Shown here piece after piece: positions 1 to 64,000 of a stretch of 64,000 nt of DNA; the first letter of the stretch is position 1, and each line of letters opens with the position of its first letter. Origin of the DNA: Faecalimonas sp. (GTDB taxonomy: Bacteria; Bacillota; Clostridia; Lachnospirales; Lachnospiraceae); NCBI GenBank assembly GCA_045649885.1, contig JAZRQP010000010.1, forward strand, positions 4,263-68,262, given 5' to 3'. The position numbers and the translations under genes were made by a program. A model generated the notes under the pieces. The model saw only the letters and a list, made by a program, of their open reading frames with translations. It did not search any database and had not been told where the DNA came from.

Positions 1-673
1 CAAGTTTGTCGTCCTTCATCACATATTCAACGGTATCGTTTTCAATCAGCGCCCTAGTTGCAGTACCTGTATACTCTTCACCGTCACGGATTACCGTAAT
101 CTCAACATCGGTTCCTAATTCTCCACGAATCTGAGAAACTATGGTATCCAAATCCTGGCCGGTAACATCTTCACCGTTTACCTTATAGACCACATCGCCT
201 TCTTTAAATCCGGCTTTTTCTCCCGGACAATTCTTATAAATTTTTGTAAATGTAACTAGTCCACTGGTGGTATCCTGCATAATCGCAACACCGATTCCTC
301 CAAATGTTCCGGAGGTGGACTCAAAGAGTGCTGTTGTCTCTGCCTTGTCGTAGTATACCGAATATGGCTCCTGGAGACCATTTACATATCCTTTTATCAG
401 ATAATCCTGCAAAACTTCCGCATCTACTTCATCCGAATACAGATAATATTTATCAATCAGGTCCTGTATTGCCTCAAGCTTCCATAGTGTGCGGCCAGAT
501 ACAATCCCGTCTTCCCCGTTTGCGGTACTTCTTTTCATGAGAGTGGAAATAACAAGTATACCACCCACAATTAGACTTACCGTTAACATAGCAAGGGCGC
601 CGCAAAGCGCCCCTTTCCAGAAGTTGTTCTTTTGTTTTTGTTGTATATGTTCTATATGCTCGAACTGCTCCAT
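1..673 (-). CDS. ctpA: S41A carboxyl-terminal processing protease with PDZ domain, 5' part (runs off window start; not in ORF track)
   Basis: Hand translation from ATG at 673 (RBS GGAG): MEQFEH...TM helix...GYVNGLQEPYSVYY...SGTFGGIGVAIM...PGEKAGFKEGDVVYKVNG...IRGELGTDVEITVIRDG, typical of S41/PDZ proteins; lies directly downstream of ftsX. Confidence 0.85.
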   Translation of the reverse strand, partial: MEQFEHIEHIQQKQKNNFWKGALCGALAMLTVSLIVGGILVISTLMKRSTANGEDGIVSGRTLWKLEAIQDLIDKYYLYSDEVDAEVLQDYLIKGYVNGLQEPYSVYYDKAETTALFESTSGTFGGIGVAIMQDTTSGLVTFTKIYKNCPGEKAGFKEGDVVYKVNGEDVTGQDLDTIVSQIRGELGTDVEITVIRDGEEYTGTATRALIENDTVEYVMKDDKL

Positions 674-8020: not shown

Positions 8021-11000
8021 TTCGCAGCCTCCTCCCGCATGATTTCCATGGCTTCTTCCGCCTTCAGCTTTTCTAATTCCCGATATTCGTATCCGTCTAT
8101 TTTCTCGTCAAAGCCACAAATTGCCTGATAAGGACAATATTTGCAAGCGGACTGCTGGTCTAATTTGTATGGCGAAACACTTGCTTCTCCTTGCAATATC
8201 TGTTTTCCAACCTTTCGCACCTGGCGATTGGCAAACTCGGAAATAATCGCAAACTCTTCCTCAGATAAAACCTTAGAAGCCTTCGCCAGGGTACCGTTTT
8301 TATTCTTCGATACCGGAATCACCTGTGATGACTGGTCAATTTCCCTGTCTAAATGTCCAATAACCTCCGGTGAATTCAGCACAATCCCATCTGGGCGCAG
8401 TTCCTTCAAGAAGGCATCCTCTAACACCTCTTCATCCTGCACTTTTTCCACAATCGGGTCTTGCACACGATAATAGAATAATCCCGCAGGAATAATCTGC
8501 TTTCCTTTACTCTCCTGCTGACTCATTTCCATGGCAGCATTCATATATACAACTAACTGCATTTGCAGTCCATAGCAAAGTTCACCTAAATCAAAGACCT
8601 GCTTTCCCGTCTTATAGTCCACAATCTTGACGTAAATGTGGTCCTCATCTTCATAGGTATCAATGCGGTCTATTTTCCCGCGAAGCACCATTTTACCCAG
8701 TTCGTCTAACTGGATATGGGAAGTGGAAAGTTCTCGCACACCGCCAAAGGCAACCTCATATCCTTTCGGTTTGAAATCTCCTTTTCCCAGTTGTTTTTTT
8801 AACGCCCATATGGTGCGACGCAGCATCCGTTTCAGTCTTGTAATGATATACTCATTTCTTGCCGAGCTATACAGAATGGAATTGCTGTAATCTACAATAC
8901 TCTCATCCACACTTTCTTGAATCAGCTCTTCCTGTCTATCCTCCGGTATATCGCCCCAGCCATACCCCTCCTGCTCGATTTTCTTCGAAAATCGCTCTAG
9001 TGAGCTATGACAAAGATTTCCCAAATCTACGGCCTGGAATTGATATTCCTCCCGTTCCTTCAGGTGGAGACCATATGTAAGGAAATGGGCGTATGCACAG
9101 GCAGAGAATTTCTCCAGTCTGGTCACACTATTTACCAGAACATCACCGTATAGTTTCTTGGCTGTCTCTCTTGTCAGCAAGTTCTCCGGTTTTTGATAAA
9201 ATGCGGCTTCTACAATCTGCTCTATCTTCCTGCTCCACTCCGGATGCCCCTTATACCATGTATAAAGCTCCTGCCATTCCTTCGAAAGACCGGCATGCTT
9301 GTTCTGCAACCCAATCACCAAGGAATCTAAACCGCTTTCCATGGTAAGCTCCTTATCTAATAGTCCGGAAGGAACATGGCCAATTTTCATATTCGGGAAC
9401 ATATTTGTCAGCTCCGAAATCAAATAGGATGGGCGGATTGCTTTTCCATCCACAGAGGTTTTGCTGTATGTCAAATAAACCTGATTCGTTGGCTTTGTCA
9501 GAAGCAGGTATAAATAGAATTTTTGAATATATGTTTTTTCTTTTGCTGTCGGTGCTAATGTTACACCCAAATTTAAAATTTTGTCTCTGTCATATTCCGT
9601 TAAAAGTCCGCCGTTTTGCACACTTCCCGGAATATAAATATCATTGGTACCTACAAGAAAGACTACCTTTACATCCTTAATTCGGCTGCGCTGCACATCA
9701 CCCACGATGACCTGGTCAATACTAGGAGGAATGATGCCGACCTTCGCCTGCTCTAATCCGGCGTCTAAAAGTTCGCAATACTCTTGTATGGAAATATATT
9801 CATCTCCCAAAAGCTCCACAAACTGGTCCAGCACCTCGATTACAATACGGTAAACCTGTGCATATTCCTTTTCCAATGCAAGCTCACCCATTTTCTCAAA
9901 CATCAATTGATATCCTTTGACACGTTGCTGCAGCTCTGCTCTTCGGAAGAACTTTTCTAGTGCCTTAGTAACATCCAGAACCGTCTTCTTTCTGCTTTTT
10001 AGTACAGATATCACCTCTTCCAGACTATCTACAAATTCCTTTCGTATACGGTTGATTTCAGAAAGCTGACTCTCATCCATCCCGTTACTTCTGCGAATCC
10101 AAGGCTCTTGCCATTTCTTATATGTCTTAACGCCCATGGCTATGACATAGTTTTCCAGCCTGTCTATGTCTTCTCTTTCCATACCTGAAAGACCGGTACG
10201 CAAATATCGAAATACACTTTCATAAGTAAAATTCTTCTCTGCCATTGCAAGCAGACTGCGGATAAATTCCACACAGGAATTCAGTAATATGCTTCTTTTA
10301 TCATCCATGAAAACCGGGAGTCCGTACTTCGCAAACACCTGCTCGATTTGGTTCGAATATGCAGCCAAATCATTTGTGATAATCGCAAAATCATTATAAC
10401 GATACTGCTTGGTACGAACCATGTGGCGAATCCTTTGTGCCACAAAATCGACTTCTTCCCTCGGACTTTTCCCGCACCAAATCTGAATGCTGTCCTGATC
10501 CTTCTCATAATGTTCCTTCGAATAACGGAAGAGATGGGATTCCAAAAATCCCAACGCCTCATTGTCACGGAATCGATAAACCGGCTCCTGATACATACAA
10601 ACAGGCTCGTCAATAGAAGTCCCACTTTCTTTTGCAATTGCCATAAGACCGGTAACCATTTTTTTACTAAGAGCAAATAATTGGTATGGATGTTGATACA
10701 CATATGGGTTTTCCCGTTTATCCATAGTGACTGTAACCATCACCTTTTCACTCACCTTCAATAGTTCTCGAAGCAATTTATTCTGAACCGGTGTAAAGCC
10801 GGTAAATCCATCCAAAACAATGATACTTTTCTTTAGCAGCTTTGATTTTATTACAACCGAAGCAAGCACATCCAGAATTTCTTCCACTGTGATGTACTTC
10901 TCCTTTAAATATTCTACAAATCCCTCGTAGACAAGTTGAATGTCTCGAAGCTTGTAATACATGTTCGGATTACTCTCTGCCTTTTGTAACAATTCCTCCA

Positions 11001-11415
11001 GGCTATCCGGGGTGATATCGTACTGTGTGAACTCGGATATAATGGATTTGATTTCACTGATATATCCGATCTTTTTCAAATTGCTGCCAAGAAGCTTTAA
11101 CTGCTCCTCTTTATCCCCCGCAATCTTTCGAATGACAAAGTTTTTCCCCACATCATCCAGCACAATCCGCCTGTTATTACCAACCTCTTCAAACACGCGG
11201 TTTGCCAAGCGATTGAAGCTTAGCACTTCCACATTCAGAGTTCCCTTATTGGGACTTGCCAAACACAAATCCTTCTGTGTTTGCATGGTAAACTGCTCCG
11301 GCACAAGAACAATGTAATTTTTGTCCGGATTTTTCAATGATTCAGTTGTCACCCATTGATACAAATAATGGGACTTTCCTGCACCGGAAGGTCCCATAAT
11401 AAATTGCAAACTCAT
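8011..11415 (-). CDS. addB: ATP-dependent helicase/nuclease subunit B
   Basis: GPSGAGKS, VPEQFT, LDGFTGFTPVQ, SVTRLEKFSAC, GKIDRID...VDYKTG, CKYCPYQAIC Fe-S cysteines; overlaps addA. Confidence 0.97.
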   Translation of the reverse strand: MSLQFIMGPSGAGKSHYLYQWVTTESLKNPDKNYIVLVPEQFTMQTQKDLCLASPNKGTLNVEVLSFNRLANRVFEEVGNNRRIVLDDVGKNFVIRKIAGDKEEQLKLLGSNLKKIGYISEIKSIISEFTQYDITPDSLEELLQKAESNPNMYYKLRDIQLVYEGFVEYLKEKYITVEEILDVLASVVIKSKLLKKSIIVLDGFTGFTPVQNKLLRELLKVSEKVMVTVTMDKRENPYVYQHPYQLFALSKKMVTGLMAIAKESGTSIDEPVCMYQEPVYRFRDNEALGFLESHLFRYSKEHYEKDQDSIQIWCGKSPREEVDFVAQRIRHMVRTKQYRYNDFAIITNDLAAYSNQIEQVFAKYGLPVFMDDKRSILLNSCVEFIRSLLAMAEKNFTYESVFRYLRTGLSGMEREDIDRLENYVIAMGVKTYKKWQEPWIRRSNGMDESQLSEINRIRKEFVDSLEEVISVLKSRKKTVLDVTKALEKFFRRAELQQRVKGYQLMFEKMGELALEKEYAQVYRIVIEVLDQFVELLGDEYISIQEYCELLDAGLEQAKVGIIPPSIDQVIVGDVQRSRIKDVKVVFLVGTNDIYIPGSVQNGGLLTEYDRDKILNLGVTLAPTAKEKTYIQKFYLYLLLTKPTNQVYLTYSKTSVDGKAIRPSYLISELTNMFPNMKIGHVPSGLLDKELTMESGLDSLVIGLQNKHAGLSKEWQELYTWYKGHPEWSRKIEQIVEAAFYQKPENLLTRETAKKLYGDVLVNSVTRLEKFSACAYAHFLTYGLHLKEREEYQFQAVDLGNLCHSSLERFSKKIEQEGYGWGDIPEDRQEELIQESVDESIVDYSNSILYSSARNEYIITRLKRMLRRTIWALKKQLGKGDFKPKGYEVAFGGVRELSTSHIQLDELGKMVLRGKIDRIDTYEDEDHIYVKIVDYKTGKQVFDLGELCYGLQMQLVVYMNAAMEMSQQESKGKQIIPAGLFYYRVQDPIVEKVQDEEVLEDAFLKELRPDGIVLNSPEVIGHLDREIDQSSQVIPVSKNKNGTLAKASKVLSEEEFAIISEFANRQVRKVGKQILQGEASVSPYKLDQQSACKYCPYQAICGFDEKIDGYEYRELEKLKAEEAMEIMREEAAKWE

Positions 11416-11458
11416 TCGTTTCCTCCTAAATGTACTTATGCAAATCTATAATATTCTA

Positions 11459-12022
11459 CTATAATTTGATAATCATCGCTGGAATCGGTGGATTTGATGG
11501 ACGATTAAAGTAGGATGTTAAAATAACAAGATACTGCTTTGTATCCAGTTTCTTAAGCTCCCCTAATATTCCATCCCGTTCTTCAAATCCACTGTCGCCG
11601 CCGCTATAGATACAAAGGCTCATCATGCCGCCTTTTTTCAACAGTTTTAACCCTTCATGAATTGCTGCGATACTAGTGTCTTTATGGGTTGCTAATGCAT
11701 GATCTCCTCCCGGCAAATAACCAAAATTGAAAACAATGCAACTCACATTTTCCGCTTCAACGTATTGCCCCATATTGGTATGACTGTCCTTTATCACTTC
11801 AACTCGGTCTGACAAAGCAAACTTTTCAAGACGATTTCTAGTATTCTCAATTGCCTGCTCCTGAATATCAAAGGCAAATACCTTTCCAGTTTCTCCTACA
11901 AGTTCACATAAAAGCTGTGTATCGTTTCCATTTCCTGCAGTTGCATCAATACATATATCTCCCTGTTTTACATGCTCACGGATAAAATGATGACACCACT
12001 CCGTAATCTGATAATTTTTCAT
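11459..12022 (-). CDS. Class I SAM-dependent methyltransferase (YtqB/MnmM-like)
   Basis: IDATAGNGNDT, FAFDIQEQAI, FNFGYLPGGD. Confidence 0.85.
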   Translation of the reverse strand: MKNYQITEWCHHFIREHVKQGDICIDATAGNGNDTQLLCELVGETGKVFAFDIQEQAIENTRNRLEKFALSDRVEVIKDSHTNMGQYVEAENVSCIVFNFGYLPGGDHALATHKDTSIAAIHEGLKLLKKGGMMSLCIYSGGDSGFEERDGILGELKKLDTKQYLVILTSYFNRPSNPPIPAMIIKL

Positions 12023-12028
12023 AAGAAT

Positions 12029-13276
12029 CTATTTCACTTTCTCATAAATTTCCACCGGGACATAGCCCTTTGCGAAAATGCCTTCACCACGGTATTCCTC
12101 TTCCAAAAGTTCTCCGTACTTACGAATCATTTGAATCTTGCCTGCTTCTGCATAGGAATATACCTTCTCAATATACACCTTCTGCCCACGAAGTACTTCC
12201 TCAATGGTTTCTTGAAGCTTATCCAGACCATCTCCATGCTTTGCTGAGATACGTACAATATGGTCTGCACGGAAATCACGCAAAATGCTCTCGCCTTCTA
12301 CTTTATCCTGCTTATTAAATGCCGTGATAATCGGCTTATTCTTTACTTCCAAATTGGTCAAGGTCTCATAGACAATATACATCTGCTCATCCACCTGAGG
12401 ATTGGACGCATCTACAACATGCAAGATGATGTCTGCATATTTGGCCTCTTCTAACGTACTGCGGAATGCCTCAATCAAATGATGTGGTAATTTCCGAATA
12501 AATCCAACTGTATCGGTAAGTAATACTTCCTGTTTGCTTGGAAGTTTTAAATTTCTCGTTGTCGGGTCTAAGGTTGCAAACAGCTTGTCCTCTTCCAATA
12601 CACCTGCTCCTGTGAGCTTGTTTAACAACGTAGATTTACCCGCATTGGTATAACCGACTATAGCAACTACCGGAACTTTATTTCTGCTGCGCTGTTCCCT
12701 TGTTACCTCCCGATGACGTTTCACGTCCTTCAGTTCACGATTAAGCTGTGCAATGCGGTCACGAATCAATCTTCGATCCATCTCCAGCTTCTTTTCACCT
12801 GGTCCTCTGGTACCAATACCACCGCCCAGTCTAGACAGTGATTTTCCAAGCCCTGTCAGTCTGGATTGACGATATTTCAATTGGGCCAATTCTACCTGAA
12901 TCTTTCCTTCATTGGTGGATGCTCGCCCTGCAAAAATATCCAGGATGATTAACGTACGGTCCATAACCTTGGTATCCAACACATCCTCCATATTGCCTAA
13001 CTGAATCGTGGAAAGCTCATCATCACAAATAATACCGGTAGCTTCAGTTTCCCAGATTAATTCCTTAATTTCATCTAATTTTCCTTTTCCAACATAAGTT
13101 CCCGGATGAATCTGGTCCAGATTCTGAATCACACGTCCTACGGTAACTGCCCCCGCTGTCTGCGCCAATTCTTCTAATTCATCCAAAGATTTCTCCGTAT
13201 CATCATGGTCACTGGTGCTTACACCGACTAATATAACACGTTCGATGTCCTGTTTTAGGTCTATCATTTCTGCCAT
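12029..13276 (-). CDS. hflX: Ribosome-splitting GTPase HflX
   Basis: GIGTRGPGEKKLE, VGYTNAGKST, LFATLDPT, DTVGFI, NKQD. Confidence 0.97.
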   Translation of the reverse strand: MAEMIDLKQDIERVILVGVSTSDHDDTEKSLDELEELAQTAGAVTVGRVIQNLDQIHPGTYVGKGKLDEIKELIWETEATGIICDDELSTIQLGNMEDVLDTKVMDRTLIILDIFAGRASTNEGKIQVELAQLKYRQSRLTGLGKSLSRLGGGIGTRGPGEKKLEMDRRLIRDRIAQLNRELKDVKRHREVTREQRSRNKVPVVAIVGYTNAGKSTLLNKLTGAGVLEEDKLFATLDPTTRNLKLPSKQEVLLTDTVGFIRKLPHHLIEAFRSTLEEAKYADIILHVVDASNPQVDEQMYIVYETLTNLEVKNKPIITAFNKQDKVEGESILRDFRADHIVRISAKHGDGLDKLQETIEEVLRGQKVYIEKVYSYAEAGKIQMIRKYGELLEEEYRGEGIFAKGYVPVEIYEKVK

Positions 13277-58701: not shown

Positions 58702-59280
58702 TTAATCTTTTATCTGCCTTCCTGTCACATCCAAATGATAATTCTCTTTATAGATTAATTCTGAAATTGGAACAATCTCGTATCCTTGTGCTTTCAGGCC
58801 TTCAATTACCTTTGGAAGTGCCTCTGCCGTATATTTTGCACCGTTGTGCATAAGTATAATGGAACCATTCTTTAAATTTTTATGTTCGGTAACTGTTTTG
58901 ATAATATTGTCTACTCCGTAGTCCTTCCAATCTAAGCTGTCTACGTCCCATTGTATGGTATAATATCCGCAAGAGGTTGCATTTTTAATCACTTCATTGT
59001 CATAATCTCCGTATGGTGGACGGAATAAATCCATTTCTACGCCGGTTATCTCTTTAACCTTTTCATGTACCTTCAGAAGCTCCTGCTGACACTCGCTATC
59101 TGGTAGCTGACTCATATTTTTATGATTTTCACTGTGATTTGCCAAGTCATGCCCTGCTTCTTTGATTTTCTTTACATCCTCTGGGAAATTCTCTACCCAA
59201 CCACCGGTCATAAAGAATGTAACATGAATGTTATATTCTTTTAAAATGTCAAGAATTTGCTGTGTATCTTCATTCCCCCA
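58702..59280 (-). pseudogene. 3' part of a PdaB-like polysaccharide deacetylase (CE4), split just after the motif-1 aspartate by a serine-recombinase element
   Basis: The in-frame upstream extension reads WGNEDTQQILDILKEYNIHVTFFMTGGWVE, then ANHSENH, FRPPYG, WDVDSLDW, LMHN; the expected N-terminus and (S/T)FD(A/C)A are missing. Confidence 0.85.
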
Positions 59281-59298
59281 CGGTAATGGTCAGTGGGG
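59276..59298. repeat. Probable att junction of the serine-recombinase element
   Basis: IR CCCCAC-GGTAATGGTCA-GTGGGG centred where deacetylase homology stops, 4 nt from the recombinase stop codon. Confidence 0.6.
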
Positions 59299-59302
59299 CT
59301 AC

Positions 59303-60940
59303 TTATCCCACTAATTTCATCAGATTTTCGTACTCGTTGGAGAAATTATAACGGATTTTGATACGCTTGTTCTCAAAGATTTGAATCTCATCTATCATCT
59401 CTACGACAATCTCTCTTGTGAGTTCTGTAATCTCTTTGTGTTCAAGTAAATGCTGAACCCATGGTAACTCCAGTACATCAGACTGTTTGTTCTTCTGAAC
59501 CTTTTTCTCCAACTCACACAGTTTCCGATTCAACTCATCCTCTTCCCTTGTATATGATTCTCTATATTCGATGTACTCTTCGTTTGAGAGATTACCTTCT
59601 GCATATTCCTCAAACACCTTTTTCTTCAGTTTCTTCTTTCGGTCTATTTCTTTCTTTGTCTTCTCCAGGTCCATAAGATACATTTCTGTTGAAGTCATTT
59701 TCTTCTTAGTTTCCTTCTCTGCACGCTCAACTAATTCTTTCAAATGCTGCATTGCAGAAAGCATTTGATTCAAATCATGCAGAACAATCGCCTTCAAAGT
59801 ATCTTCCTTTATGTAATGTGACGTACATCCCTTTGTTCCAATATTCTGATAAGTGCCACACTTGAAGGTAAAGTAATTCTGCCCCTTGGAATCTTTATGC
59901 GAATTCTTACGCATAGCCCGACCACAGTCACCACATTTGAGAAACCCTGCAAAAATGCTCTGATTTTGTTCGAAAGTGATATCTGTTTTTCGCTGCTTTA
60001 ACGCCTTCTGTGTCTTTTCCCATGTGTCCATATCAATGATAGCCGCATGCGTTCCAGGAACCTTAATCCACTCAGATTCATCTAATCGTTCCGGTTTCCC
60101 ATGAATCTCTCTCCACGTAGTTCCCTGCACCATCGTACCGGTATATATCTCATGTTTTAGAATCTTGGTAATTGTGGAATAGGTCCAGTAATACGTAGTA
60201 TCCAGTTTATTGGAATTCGTGTAATTATATCCATTCTGTTTTTTGTACTCAGACGGACAAAGGATTCCTTCCTCGTTCAAAATCTTCGCAATACGAACCT
60301 TTCCATAACCAGACAGGAACATATCAAAGATTCTCCGAACCACTTCTGCCGCATATGGGTCAATCTCCAACCGATGTCTGTCTTTCTCTGACTTTTGATA
60401 TCCATAACATGCAAATGCACCAACAAATTCTCCGCTACGCTGTTTTGCTTTAAACGATGCCTGACATTTCGCTGAAATATCCTGTGCGTAATGCTCGTTA
60501 AACATATTACGAACAGAAAACATCATGTCATAACCACTAGTTAAGGTATCGTATTGGTCAAGAATTGCAATAAAACGAACATTATACTCCTTAAACCTTT
60601 TTTTGATAAGAACTTCTACATCTGTTTGATTTCTTCCGAATCTCGACTGGTCTTTGACGACAATACAATTAATCACTCCGTTTTTTGCATCTTCCAGCAT
60701 TTCTTGAAAACCCGGACGGTCGAAAAGATATCCTGTCTCGCCATCATCCACGTACTCTTTAATAAGTACCATGTCCTCATGGTGTTTAAGAAAATCCAAC
60801 GCCAGCATGCGTTGATTAGATATACTTTCGCTTTCTTTTTTATGCCCTCCATCTTCTACCGATAATCTTAAATAAATTCCAACCTTGAATGTTTTAATTT
60901 TCGCTAACCTTCTATTTCTGCTCACTATTACACCATTCAA
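59303..60940 (-). CDS. Large serine recombinase (resolvase + recombinase + zinc ribbon + coiled coil)
   Basis: GIYLRLS (catalytic Ser), YVDDGETG, RPGFQEML, VKDQSRFGRN, CGDCG...CGTY...C; start codon uncertain (TTG 60940 or GTG 60925). Confidence 0.95.
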   Translation of the reverse strand: MNGVIVSRNRRLAKIKTFKVGIYLRLSVEDGGHKKESESISNQRMLALDFLKHHEDMVLIKEYVDDGETGYLFDRPGFQEMLEDAKNGVINCIVVKDQSRFGRNQTDVEVLIKKRFKEYNVRFIAILDQYDTLTSGYDMMFSVRNMFNEHYAQDISAKCQASFKAKQRSGEFVGAFACYGYQKSEKDRHRLEIDPYAAEVVRRIFDMFLSGYGKVRIAKILNEEGILCPSEYKKQNGYNYTNSNKLDTTYYWTYSTITKILKHEIYTGTMVQGTTWREIHGKPERLDESEWIKVPGTHAAIIDMDTWEKTQKALKQRKTDITFEQNQSIFAGFLKCGDCGRAMRKNSHKDSKGQNYFTFKCGTYQNIGTKGCTSHYIKEDTLKAIVLHDLNQMLSAMQHLKELVERAEKETKKKMTSTEMYLMDLEKTKKEIDRKKKLKKKVFEEYAEGNLSNEEYIEYRESYTREEDELNRKLCELEKKVQKNKQSDVLELPWVQHLLEHKEITELTREIVVEMIDEIQIFENKRIKIRYNFSNEYENLMKLVG

Positions 60941-61338: not shown

Positions 61339-64000
61339 CTATTCACTTATAGGAAACTGCAACTTAATGTTATTGTATCTCATTACATACAATGCAAAAC
61401 ATCTCCAAATCGGATTTCCCATCCTGCTTTCATCGTGATATTTTTTAAAGATGTCAGTTATTAATGAAACAAAGTTTTCTTTATACTTGTCTTCCAACTC
61501 GTTTACTGACCTCAAGCATTCACTCCACTGCAACAAGAATTCGTCCCTCTCTACATCTGTCATATTCTCATATAATGCTGTCAATGTCTTTATGAGTTTG
61601 TCTGTCACAATAATGTTGAACCTACAATCAATCATCTTTCTTATATAATTGATTAGCATTGGGGCTGTTAATCCCATATCACACAAAAAGTCCACAATAC
61701 CCACTGATGATATACCACATTCTTTTATTTGGCTAATAGCCATGATTGGAACTTCCGCACTTACCAAAACAACATCTGTGTTCATCGATATTGCCACCGC
61801 ATCATAGTCGCATACTCCCAGAAAATCTTTCCAATCGAAATCCTTAAATTCCTCGACTTTGATGTCTTTTTCATTGTTCATTGTATCAATTTGTTGGCAA
61901 TATTGTCTGATTCCCGCTGCTTCGCCCATCCATTTTTGTTTTTCCTCTTCTACACTCTCTTGGAAAAACACCTCTCCATTAGCCTTACCCATTGTAGCAA
62001 CACAGTCCTTCTTATACCTTGCAATAATATCCTCCGCTTCACTTAATATTTCTCTTTGTGCAGAGTCCGTAATATAAATATTCTTGTGTTTATATTGCTC
62101 AATTGGAAATCCTAATTTGTATAATGCAACCATTGCTGAAAATGACAACATGAACCTTTCACCTGAGACCTCATTGCAATTTAAAATTTCACGAAAAATA
62201 ACACTTTTGTCCTCTAATAGCACGAGAATAAATTGCAAATAATTAACATTAACAAATTTGTATAACGAAAACAGCGTAACTGTCATGTTGTGCATATCCT
62301 GGTAATGCTCTAACCATTTAAAAGCATCTCCGTCATCTGGAATGTTCGCTTTAAGCACTTCTACCATTTCCTTACGTGATTGTTCATCATCTCCTGCCGG
62401 AAGCAAAATCTGTTTTGCAATGCCTGCTCCTACTATTTTGTTCATGCAAGTTCTAAAATAATAACAATCTAAAGTTAGAATTTCTTTTACGACATAGGTG
62501 GTATCTCCAATTATAATATCCATCCCGACTTCTTTACGAATTAGCCCCATCTGTATGGCACGGTCTTCAGATATGTGCATTGCGCCTTCCCAACTCCACG
62601 CTTCTTCTGGAAGAACATTTTTCTTATAAATACAATATACTATTTTACCTTTGTTTCCCTTGTCTTCTAAAATAACAGACGTACACACATCTACTTTTTT
62701 TACCTCAGGTCCACTTTGGTTTTCATCACCCATATGAATCACCAAATAATTTTGATAAGTATTTATATCCTGCTCTTGTGACTTCAATAGGGCACGCATT
62801 ATTAAATTTATTGCCTCTTCATGTTGACCGTTTTCCTCACATACAACCGCAGACAGCATAAGCATTCTAGAACTATCAATAGATATCGCGGCCTTTAACA
62901 CTTCATCTGAAATAGAGCGCCTGTTTTCTATAGAAAGCCCTATAATAGCATCTATCACACGTTCTTCTTTCGGGTATTCTTCAAAAAGAGTATTAAGTAT
63001 AGACAACGCTTCCAATCTATACCCTTGATACATTAATGCTGTTGCTTTCATTTGCAGAACCTTTTCGTTTGCCTTCCCCAATGCCTCTATTCTACTGATG
63101 ATTTTCATGGCATCTTTGTATCGTTGACATCCTATTAACAATTCGCACGCTTTCTCATCCGAATTCGTTAAAATAGACATTGATTCTTTCGAAGACCACA
63201 CCTCCAAAAATTCGTCCACCACTGAATCTTCAGTTGACATTATTAACATTTCTATCCAATACTCAATGTAGTTTTTATATTTATCCTTGTATCCCAAAAG
63301 CAATTCAGTGCATTCTGTATTACCTTTTTCAATTCTTACAGCCTGTGCATATAGAATAAACAAATTAAAATCTTTGTCAATCAACCATAAGTTCCGTCCT
63401 AACACTTCCAAAATTGCTATTCCCTTGTTTTCTTGACGTAGCAAATAGTTATTCAACAACCAATATTGTCCTGTCGATTTGCATCTTTCTATAATTTCTG
63501 CTTCTGTTGCTTCATTTTTTTCGATTTTTAAAAACAGAAACAATCCTTGAATATCCTCATCATCTTTTAACCATTCCGGTAATTCTGATACAAACGCATC
63601 TGCTTCTGTCGTCGAACAAATAATCGTCGCACGTAACACTGTTACAAAATATTCTTTTTGCACTTTGTGACACATATACAGCACATTTTCTTTTCTACTT
63701 CGCAACTCATGTAAAATACTTGTAGCCAAGTCATCCGCTGTAATGTCCGTTCCCTTAGACAATAATTCATTTATCTTTTTAGTGTTAATCAGTATCTTAT
63801 CAATAAAATTTGCATCTTCACCAAGAAGTTTTTCCATTTCATCTGCGATAAGTATTGGCTCATTATATAAATACAGCGAACATAGACGTTTTATCAACCA
63901 TATTTCAGAAGGATATTTGTCCGTGACTGTAAATTCATAAGTATCAACGACACCATTTTCTTTTAACTTTTTCTCTAGAACAGCACTTCTCTCTTGTTCT
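61339..64000 (-). CDS. Large TPR + GreA/B C-terminal-like + PIN-like protein (5' end beyond the window)
   Basis: The frame stays open from 63897 to the window end (...EQERSAVLEKK...IWLIKRL); TPR helices; LIRKEVGMDIIIGDTTYVVKEI GreA-C-like; FMLSFSAMVALYKLG / DYDAVAIS / VLVSAE PIN-like. Confidence 0.7.
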   Translation of the reverse strand, partial: EQERSAVLEKKLKENGVVDTYEFTVTDKYPSEIWLIKRLCSLYLYNEPILIADEMEKLLGEDANFIDKILINTKKINELLSKGTDITADDLATSILHELRSRKENVLYMCHKVQKEYFVTVLRATIICSTTEADAFVSELPEWLKDDEDIQGLFLFLKIEKNEATEAEIIERCKSTGQYWLLNNYLLRQENKGIAILEVLGRNLWLIDKDFNLFILYAQAVRIEKGNTECTELLLGYKDKYKNYIEYWIEMLIMSTEDSVVDEFLEVWSSKESMSILTNSDEKACELLIGCQRYKDAMKIISRIEALGKANEKVLQMKATALMYQGYRLEALSILNTLFEEYPKEERVIDAIIGLSIENRRSISDEVLKAAISIDSSRMLMLSAVVCEENGQHEEAINLIMRALLKSQEQDINTYQNYLVIHMGDENQSGPEVKKVDVCTSVILEDKGNKGKIVYCIYKKNVLPEEAWSWEGAMHISEDRAIQMGLIRKEVGMDIIIGDTTYVVKEILTLDCYYFRTCMNKIVGAGIAKQILLPAGDDEQSRKEMVEVLKANIPDDGDAFKWLEHYQDMHNMTVTLFSLYKFVNVNYLQFILVLLEDKSVIFREILNCNEVSGERFMLSFSAMVALYKLGFPIEQYKHKNIYITDSAQREILSEAEDIIARYKKDCVATMGKANGEVFFQESVEEEKQKWMGEAAGIRQYCQQIDTMNNEKDIKVEEFKDFDWKDFLGVCDYDAVAISMNTDVVLVSAEVPIMAISQIKECGISSVGIVDFLCDMGLTAPMLINYIRKMIDCRFNIIVTDKLIKTLTALYENMTDVERDEFLLQWSECLRSVNELEDKYKENFVSLITDIFKKYHDESRMGNPIWRCFALYVMRYNNIKLQFPISE

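Follow-up and report, generated by a model that had tools for sequence, protein, structure and literature searches.

What does the long open reading frame at the end of this Faecalimonas sp. sequence encode, and has its PIN-like region decayed or been kept by selection? The frame closes a 64,000-nucleotide stretch (the window; contig C10 4263-68262, from an assembly of 2.39 Mb in 153 contigs). The original prediction read it as a giant protein of TPR helices, a GreA/B C-terminal-like domain and a PIN-like region with a degenerate active site, a candidate defence protein carried on a mobile element. To judge from the evidence below, it is quite probably an intact, stand-alone, divergent gene of the TPR-GreA/B-C-PIN (TGP) family, held as cargo at the recombinase end of an integrative island of at least 30 kb in a ruminant-gut spore-former of the class Clostridia. 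Two features deserve note: a PIN pocket that is conserved although it lacks the first aspartate, and an unannotated head domain common to Avs2 defence proteins.

The gene, its domains and its family

The frame runs uninterrupted on the minus strand over window positions 61339-64000 (886 codons plus stop) and is open at the window edge. As predicted, it continues beyond. The complete gene (C10 65601-69137, minus strand) encodes 1178 amino acids (protein P0002), with 292 codons outside the window, and reaches 875 bases past the window end. The start ATG, at C10 69137, lies six bases after AAAGGAG, a good ribosome-binding site. The gene is intact, the window holding its C-terminal three quarters, and the protein described as giant has the size just given. 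Each of the motifs quoted in the prediction was recovered: KVDVCTSVIL...IVYCI...LIRKEVGMDIII...YVVKEI (residues 727-801, window 62473-62697), FMLSFSA (908-914), DYDA (1023-1026) and LVSAE (1037-1041). A promoter and terminator scan at the gene stayed at chance level and was uninformative.

When Pfam was searched with P0002 alone, sub-threshold TPR matches came back and no others (TPR_14, E 0.0013); NCBIfam gave no meaningful match, and PADLOC and the PDB sequences gave none at all. Whole-genome scans with PF20698 and PF01272 missed the gene, and P0002 itself fell below the gathering score of PF20698 (27.8 bits). This family is the "PIN domain associated with the TPR-GreAB-C-PIN system" (PIN-TPR-GreABC). 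Since direct scans gave only weak TPR matches, family profiles and structure models were needed.

A word-indexed search with P0002 found 11 relatives. Three of these (27-34% identity) matched PF20698 just under its cut-off, at 26.2 (relative P0009), 21.4 and 19.5 bits, with the match falling at the position of the PIN-like region. A full-length family profile was then compared exhaustively with 1.84 billion representatives, clustered at 50% identity. It matched 429 clusters within a limit of E<=1e-3, of which 134 stayed within E<=1e-30, and most matches were 1150-1220 amino acids long and aligned end to end, so the gene is far more than a chance reading frame. It also retrieved the distant relatives P0106, P0115, P0129 and P0142, at E of about 1e-76 to 7e-31. 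These four pass the PF20698 cut-off (28.6-43.1 bits), and the distant matches, these included, align over profile positions of about 584-1170 only. As judged from the profiles, the protein belongs to the TGP conflict family, as one of its divergent members, and this membership is established transitively. Its distribution is sporadic: besides the source genome, 3 of 400 genomes of the class gave a match, each a partial one. Gut metagenomes from sheep and cattle (bovine) contain near-identical DNA, and searches of plasmid and phage records gave no homologue.

The domains are listed in Table 1. For the TPR array, the family profile of 80 sequences (A2) picked up engineered and consensus TPR and PPR proteins among PDB entries, with E from 3.4e-18 to 1e-8 over profile positions of about 513-720, and Pfam TPR_14 and TPR_19 fell below threshold at residues 584-640 of the single sequence. 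The C-terminal part (residues 716-1178) was modelled with AlphaFold2 from 36 sequences, at a mean predicted local distance difference test score (pLDDT) of 85.9 and a predicted template modelling score (pTM) of 0.73; over the GreA/B-C domain the pLDDT was about 88-91. Foldseek matched this domain with probability 1.00 to GreA (1grj, 9a7t_B), Gfh1 (3aoi, 2f23, 2etn, 2eul), Rnk (3bmb) and 2pn0, over 82-90 columns at 12-22% identity. Profile comparison agreed: hhalign aligned the profile of residues 716-835 with 24 GreA proteins from the source genome and its relatives at a probability of 83% (E 9e-6), taking in the whole GreA C-domain (residues 84-158 of 160). PF01272 detects the two real Gre factors of the genome and not the TGP gene. 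Within the domain, the leucine of the GreA "G-L" motif (the residue changed in the Agp mutant L634P) and the preceding alanine are conserved. The PIN region matched PAE2754 (1v8o, 1v8p), the archetypal PIN protein, at Foldseek probabilities of 0.96-0.99 with a template modelling score of 0.64-0.69 on the target, and 3ix7 at 0.84. The predicted order of TPR, GreA/B-C and PIN, and with it the family assignment, is thus supported by profiles, hhalign, Foldseek and the relatives that pass PF20698.

The PIN pocket and the N-terminal head

Pocket positions were assigned from the secondary structure of the AlphaFold2 model. S911 ends strand beta1 (907-910), E976 stands at the start of the helix that follows beta2 and an inserted hairpin, the next helix opens with D1023 and D1025, and E1041 comes after strand 1036-1038. 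In the model, these residues occupy the canonical positions of the PIN acidic residues. Canonical PIN RNases of the VapC type carry four acidic residues, namely the beta1 aspartate, a helix glutamate and two further aspartates; here beta1 ends in S911, whereas the other three positions are acidic.

The residue changes named in the original prediction are real: serine stands at beta1, the late motif reads AE, and DYDA is kept. The degeneracy drawn from them is correct by half at most. Serine or threonine occupies beta1 in 76 of 80 diverse members and likewise in 4 of 4 relatives that pass PF20698; the serine is characteristic of this version of the PIN domain and does not mark decay in a single protein. 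At the late motif P0002 has S-A-E, the clade S/T-x-E and the PF20698-passing relatives T/S-D-D, and D-Y-D-A is kept. Across the 1178-residue alignment, nine columns are conserved at 90% or more; five of them (R895, K979, G1020, D1023 and D1025) sit in or beside the PIN pocket. The four acidic positions, K979 and R895 are so conserved (counts in Table 1) that the pocket is under purifying selection rather than decayed, and on these column patterns we read it as functional. The idea that the effector role had moved elsewhere because the PIN domain had degenerated is accordingly not supported as stated, its pocket residues being among the best conserved of the protein.

The N-terminus lies outside the window. 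A model of residues 1-350 (pLDDT 84.4) folds residues 1-136 into a bundle of six helices; confidence is low over 141-163, where the helices are at 140-154 and 160-174, and a solenoid starts at 184. The bundle has no enzyme fold in the model and looks non-enzymatic. Foldseek gave no match for it (best probability 0.33), Pfam scans of 28 N-termini gave no consistent match, and a word-based search with the N-terminal 190 residues returned near-identical copies only. The full-length profile run against the 400 genomes of the class matched a 1374-amino-acid protein, P0161, at positions 8-176 only. PADLOC calls P0161 Avs2 at E=0 from residue 145 onward, and NCBI labels its relatives "AVAST type 2 anti-phage system protein Avs2". 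Homology to the TGP head covers the first 135 residues of P0161. The N-terminal-domain profile matched P0161 with an hhalign probability of 97.9%, and the aligned N-termini of 20 Avs2 homologues with 99.9% (E 2e-32). This type of head occurs in 20 of 120 listed Avs2 homologues, P0161 included; others in the list carry SIR2_2, metallophosphatase, DUF4062 or "MEP[IV][ST]" (MEPIS-type) heads in the same slot. By profile comparison, the N-terminus of the TGP protein is clearly homologous to the N-terminal domain of an Avs2 subclade, so that the head is a portable module, which a second defence chassis carries in its effector slot. The prediction of an effector at the unseen N-terminus thus stands in part: the bundle is homologous to a domain in the Avs2 effector slot, but it looks non-enzymatic and has no known fold.

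Two other identities for the N-terminus were considered and rejected. Its first helix resembles that of Bell/MEPIS-type domains by eye, but hhalign gave 1.1% against 24 MEPIS-type Avs2 N-termini and no fold matched. An EAD-type adaptor with its partner elsewhere was dismissed on finding no paralogue in the 96%-complete genome or in 400 genomes of the phylum. A hidden Markov model of the N-terminal domain finds only the TGP gene itself in the genome and in the loci of relatives, so that adaptor pairing with a separate effector is unlikely.

Island and neighbouring genes

The TGP gene adjoins a large serine recombinase gene and, beyond that, the 3' part of a polysaccharide deacetylase gene (Table 1). 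In congeners the deacetylase gene is intact, with about 269 codons. Its two halves lie here on C10 and on contig C100, so an island of at least 30 kb must have been inserted at about codon 77-80. This bears out the predicted carriage on an element. The halves overlap by about four codons, a possible att core. A 272-amino-acid lipoprotein (C10 86238-87056) was rejected as the 5' half; it has no Pfam match, and the real 5' half is on C100.

Upstream of the TGP gene, across an AT-rich gap of 100 bp, lies a co-oriented operon of three overlapping genes. Its 247-amino-acid product matches PLDc_2 (E 9e-19) with weak similarity to DpdK and DrmC (NucT/DpdK/DrmC-like). The trio may be a separate small defence cassette. 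Two HTH-TPR regulators lie upstream of it. A 98%-identical copy of the TGP gene has the same neighbours as in the source island. A 90%-identical copy (L003) occupies the same chromosomal site and has a recombinase of the same kind, but three genes of 431, 311 and 175 amino acids replace the operon there; the swapped slot suggests a hot spot for cargo genes beside the recombinase. The dedicated partner that the prediction had allowed for is therefore not supported, given this replacement and the missing N-terminal paralogue. No partner gene is conserved, and the TGP gene stands alone.

More distant relatives occur in settings of the defence-island type, as had been anticipated, with restriction-modification and toxin-antitoxin genes as neighbours. 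One follows an NgoMIV-type restriction-modification system, Vsr, HNH and a McrB-like AAA_5 gene; another follows two DNA methylases; a third lies between integrases with PemK and ToxN; a fourth stands beside GmrSD and a FokI restriction-modification system. In a dense restriction-modification/McrBC-like island on metagenome contig L004, relative P0012 is broken into a 79-codon piece (9669-9908) and a 1088-codon remainder (10001-13267), a pseudogene or an assembly error. The 79-amino-acid gene upstream of P0012 was rejected as a partner, being the detached N-terminus of this broken copy.

The far part of the source island encodes a D5_N/DUF5906 primase-helicase-like protein (685 amino acids, C10 89249-91306, L002 11249-13306), an Abi_2 family protein (305 amino acids, C10 92234-93151, L002 14234-15151) and many NUDIX, GNAT, kinase-like and HTH-TPR proteins; no virion genes were seen there. 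At least three HTH_3-TPR regulators, RRNPP-like, are on the island (L001 8996-9928 and 10081-10863; L002 6608-7240) and hint at peptide-signal control of island genes.

Table 1. Features of the TGP protein, its PIN pocket and its surroundings. Positions are those of the window unless a contig or locus is named; residue counts are among n = 80 family members.
Feature	Residues or codons	Position	Strand	Basis or observation
Avs2-type N-terminal six-helix bundle	1-136	wholly outside window	-	AlphaFold2 model
Flexible or coiled linker	about 140-175		-	AlphaFold2 model
Helical solenoid before TPR array	about 184-554	63214-64000 (residues 293-554)	-	AlphaFold2 model of residues 1-350, family conservation
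TPR repeats	555-720	62716-63213	-	family profile against PDB; sub-threshold Pfam
GreA/B C-terminal-like beta domain	727-801	62473-62697	-	hhalign, Foldseek
Helical linker ending in conserved R895-E896	802-899	62179-62472	-	model, column counts
PIN domain, PF20698 type	900-1050	61726-62178	-	Foldseek, PF20698 in relatives
C-terminal helical domain, conserved in family	1051-1178	61342-61725	-	model, alignment
Column 895	895			R 72
Pocket codon S911 (end of beta1)	911	62143-62145		S 59, T 17, never D
Pocket codon E976	976	61948-61950		E 51, D 20
Column 979	979			K 73
Pocket codon D1023	1023	61807-61809		D 77, E 3
Pocket codon D1025	1025	61801-61803		D 75, E 3
Pocket codon E1041	1041	61753-61755		E 70, D 10
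Large serine recombinase (545 amino acids), immediately downstream of TGP gene		59303-60940	-	Pfam Resolvase, Recombinase, Zn_ribbon_recom
Polysaccharide deacetylase, 3' part	about 77-269	58702-59283 (C10 63545-62967)	-	
Polysaccharide deacetylase, 5' part	5-80	contig C100 266-493		
Upstream operon (161 and 137 amino acids, 247-amino-acid PLD nuclease), overlapping		C10 69238-70879 (L001 7238-8879), beyond window	-	
P0161, hypothetical protein, Petroclostridium xylanilyticum (genome G149)		L050 2453-6574		

Proposed working, rival readings and known systems

The TGP architecture has been predicted to be antiviral, and a stand-alone, defence-island pattern has been described for TGP genes (Kaur, Iyer, Burroughs, Aravind, eLife 2021, PMC8195603). 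Bab/Agp, an abortive-infection system, protects E. coli against T5, and its GreA/B-C domain is needed (bioRxiv 10.1101/2024.11.07.622273). With Bab/Agp and the family model of Kaur et al. 2021 as guides, we infer the following working. Through its GreA/B-C domain the protein would dock on RNA polymerase at the rim of the secondary channel, and the TPR/solenoid would sense either a phage protein or a change that a phage imposes on the polymerase. Two outputs may follow: the PIN pocket, with Ser/Thr for the first Asp and E, D-x-D and E kept, could be a variant nuclease or an RNA- or metal-binding site that acts on or reads RNA, and the N-terminal bundle could execute or relay growth arrest or cell death. 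A more specific version, in which the bundle is a non-enzymatic death or signalling effector exchanged between the unrelated Avs2 and TGP sensors and the Ser-variant PIN is no nuclease but reads RNA emerging from the hijacked polymerase and then releases this effector, seems to us unlikely.

Several results weigh against our reading of the locus as a working TGP gene. Within a limit of E<=0.1, neither PF20698 nor PF01272 nor any of the PADLOC models matches P0002, whose membership rests on transitive, profile and fold evidence rather than on a direct match. The Foldseek E-values are weak (0.01-0.4) despite the high probabilities, because the query holds several domains. Of the GreA sequence, just the Ala and Leu positions are retained; the serine of the "S-P" RNA polymerase-contact motif is not conserved, so binding to RNA polymerase is something that we infer. 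P0002 lacks the first catalytic aspartate found in canonical PINs and has "AE" in place of the "DD", so that nuclease activity is uncertain; the one PIN mutant of Agp that was tested, D762N, destabilised Agp (bioRxiv 10.1101/2024.11.07.622273). Neither Pfam nor known structures match the N-terminal bundle, and its effector role is drawn from slot position only.

Some of these points would also fit a protein whose PIN domain is catalytically dead, an RNA or ligand sensor or a structural part, in a guard of RNA polymerase that has the N-terminal bundle as its sole output; the bundle could then be membrane-active or form an assembly. The family-wide Ser/Thr at beta1 and the loss of the first Asp of the late "DD" in the clade argue for this, as do the place of the bundle in the Avs2 effector slot and the moderately hydrophobic first helix of the bundle (mean Kyte-Doolittle 1.35 over 17 residues). 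Agp, in turn, showed no Bab-independent activity (bioRxiv 10.1101/2024.11.07.622273). However, the strong conservation of the four acidic positions with K979 and R895 suggests chemistry or tight binding, and the N-terminal domain has neither detectable homology to MEPIS/Bell-type Avs2 heads nor a structural match. We regard a dead PIN domain as unlikely.

The neighbourhood offers two further explanations. The TGP gene could form a four-gene system with the upstream operon, the PLD nuclease being the effector; co-orientation, the 100-bp gap, the PLDc_2 match with its weak DpdK/DrmC similarity, and the repeated arrangement in the 98%-identical copy all fit. We consider this highly improbable, since the 90%-identical copy at the same site has three unrelated genes, no PLD neighbour was seen in any locus of a more distant relative that was examined, and the TGP gene has its own ribosome-binding site behind an AT-rich gap. 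Alternatively, the protein could be a factor with no part in defence that tunes host transcription for island maintenance, excision or timing, for example at sporulation. In three related islands its gene is the immediate neighbour of the serine recombinase, a GreA/B-C domain is present, and the deacetylase gene split by the island is of the spore-cortex type. Little credence is left for this island factor, because relatives of 27-70% identity occur in unrelated contexts without a serine recombinase, near restriction-modification or toxin-antitoxin genes, the N-terminal module is common to Avs2 defence proteins, and membership of the family points to conflict systems. A TGP defence gene that acts on its own therefore stays our preferred reading.

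TGP proteins are widespread, almost untested single-gene immune sensors proposed to guard RNA polymerase, and Bab/Agp is the sole member studied experimentally. The clade described here comprises at least 134 clusters at 50% identity, in gut Firmicutes. As it is large, uniform in length and stand-alone, it would make a convenient test case for questions about TGP proteins: whether the GreA/B-C domain docks on RNA polymerase, whether an Asp-less PIN is an enzyme, and what the head shared with Avs2 does. The shared head illustrates, in a concrete case, how effector modules are exchanged between NLR-like and TGP sensors. Within the source genome, the gene would be an ordinary defence cargo gene on an integrative island.

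Compared with GreA, GreB, Gfh1 and Rnk, the protein has the same C-terminal domain fold and part of the motif (...A-I-x-x-G-L-x-R-K-x-x-G-D-x-V...), but the N-terminal coiled-coil finger that reaches the polymerase active site is missing and the GreA Ser-Pro is not kept. With Avs2 (AVAST type 2, NLR-like) it shares the homologous 136-residue bundle. The remainder is unrelated: Avs2 continues with a STAND P-loop NTPase and a C-terminal sensor, whereas P0002 has no NTPase and carries the TGP core instead. Agp of Bab/Agp (E. coli ECOR25) is a TGP protein of similar size (1094 amino acids), likewise on a mobile defence island. Agp signals through an N-terminal amyloid motif of ~25 residues to a separate 109-amino-acid Bell-domain partner, whereas the N-terminus here is a folded 136-residue domain without a paralogue elsewhere in the genome, a small partner is lacking, and the surrounding genes are not conserved. 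Set against TGP systems in general, P0002 scores below the Pfam threshold, has x-E and not D-D in the late PIN motif, and carries about 370 extra solenoid residues before the TPR array. Annotated TGP effectors are TIR, SIR2, PNPase, REase, HNH, peptidases and EAD10, whereas here the position is taken by an unannotated helical bundle. What it has in common with these systems is the core order of TPR, GreA/B-C, a special PIN version and a helical tail, the stand-alone gene with a variable N-terminal module, rapid evolution and mobile or defence contexts, and Ser/Thr at PIN beta1, as in the PF20698-passing relatives. It is thus not a new kind of system but a sizeable clade of the TGP family already described.

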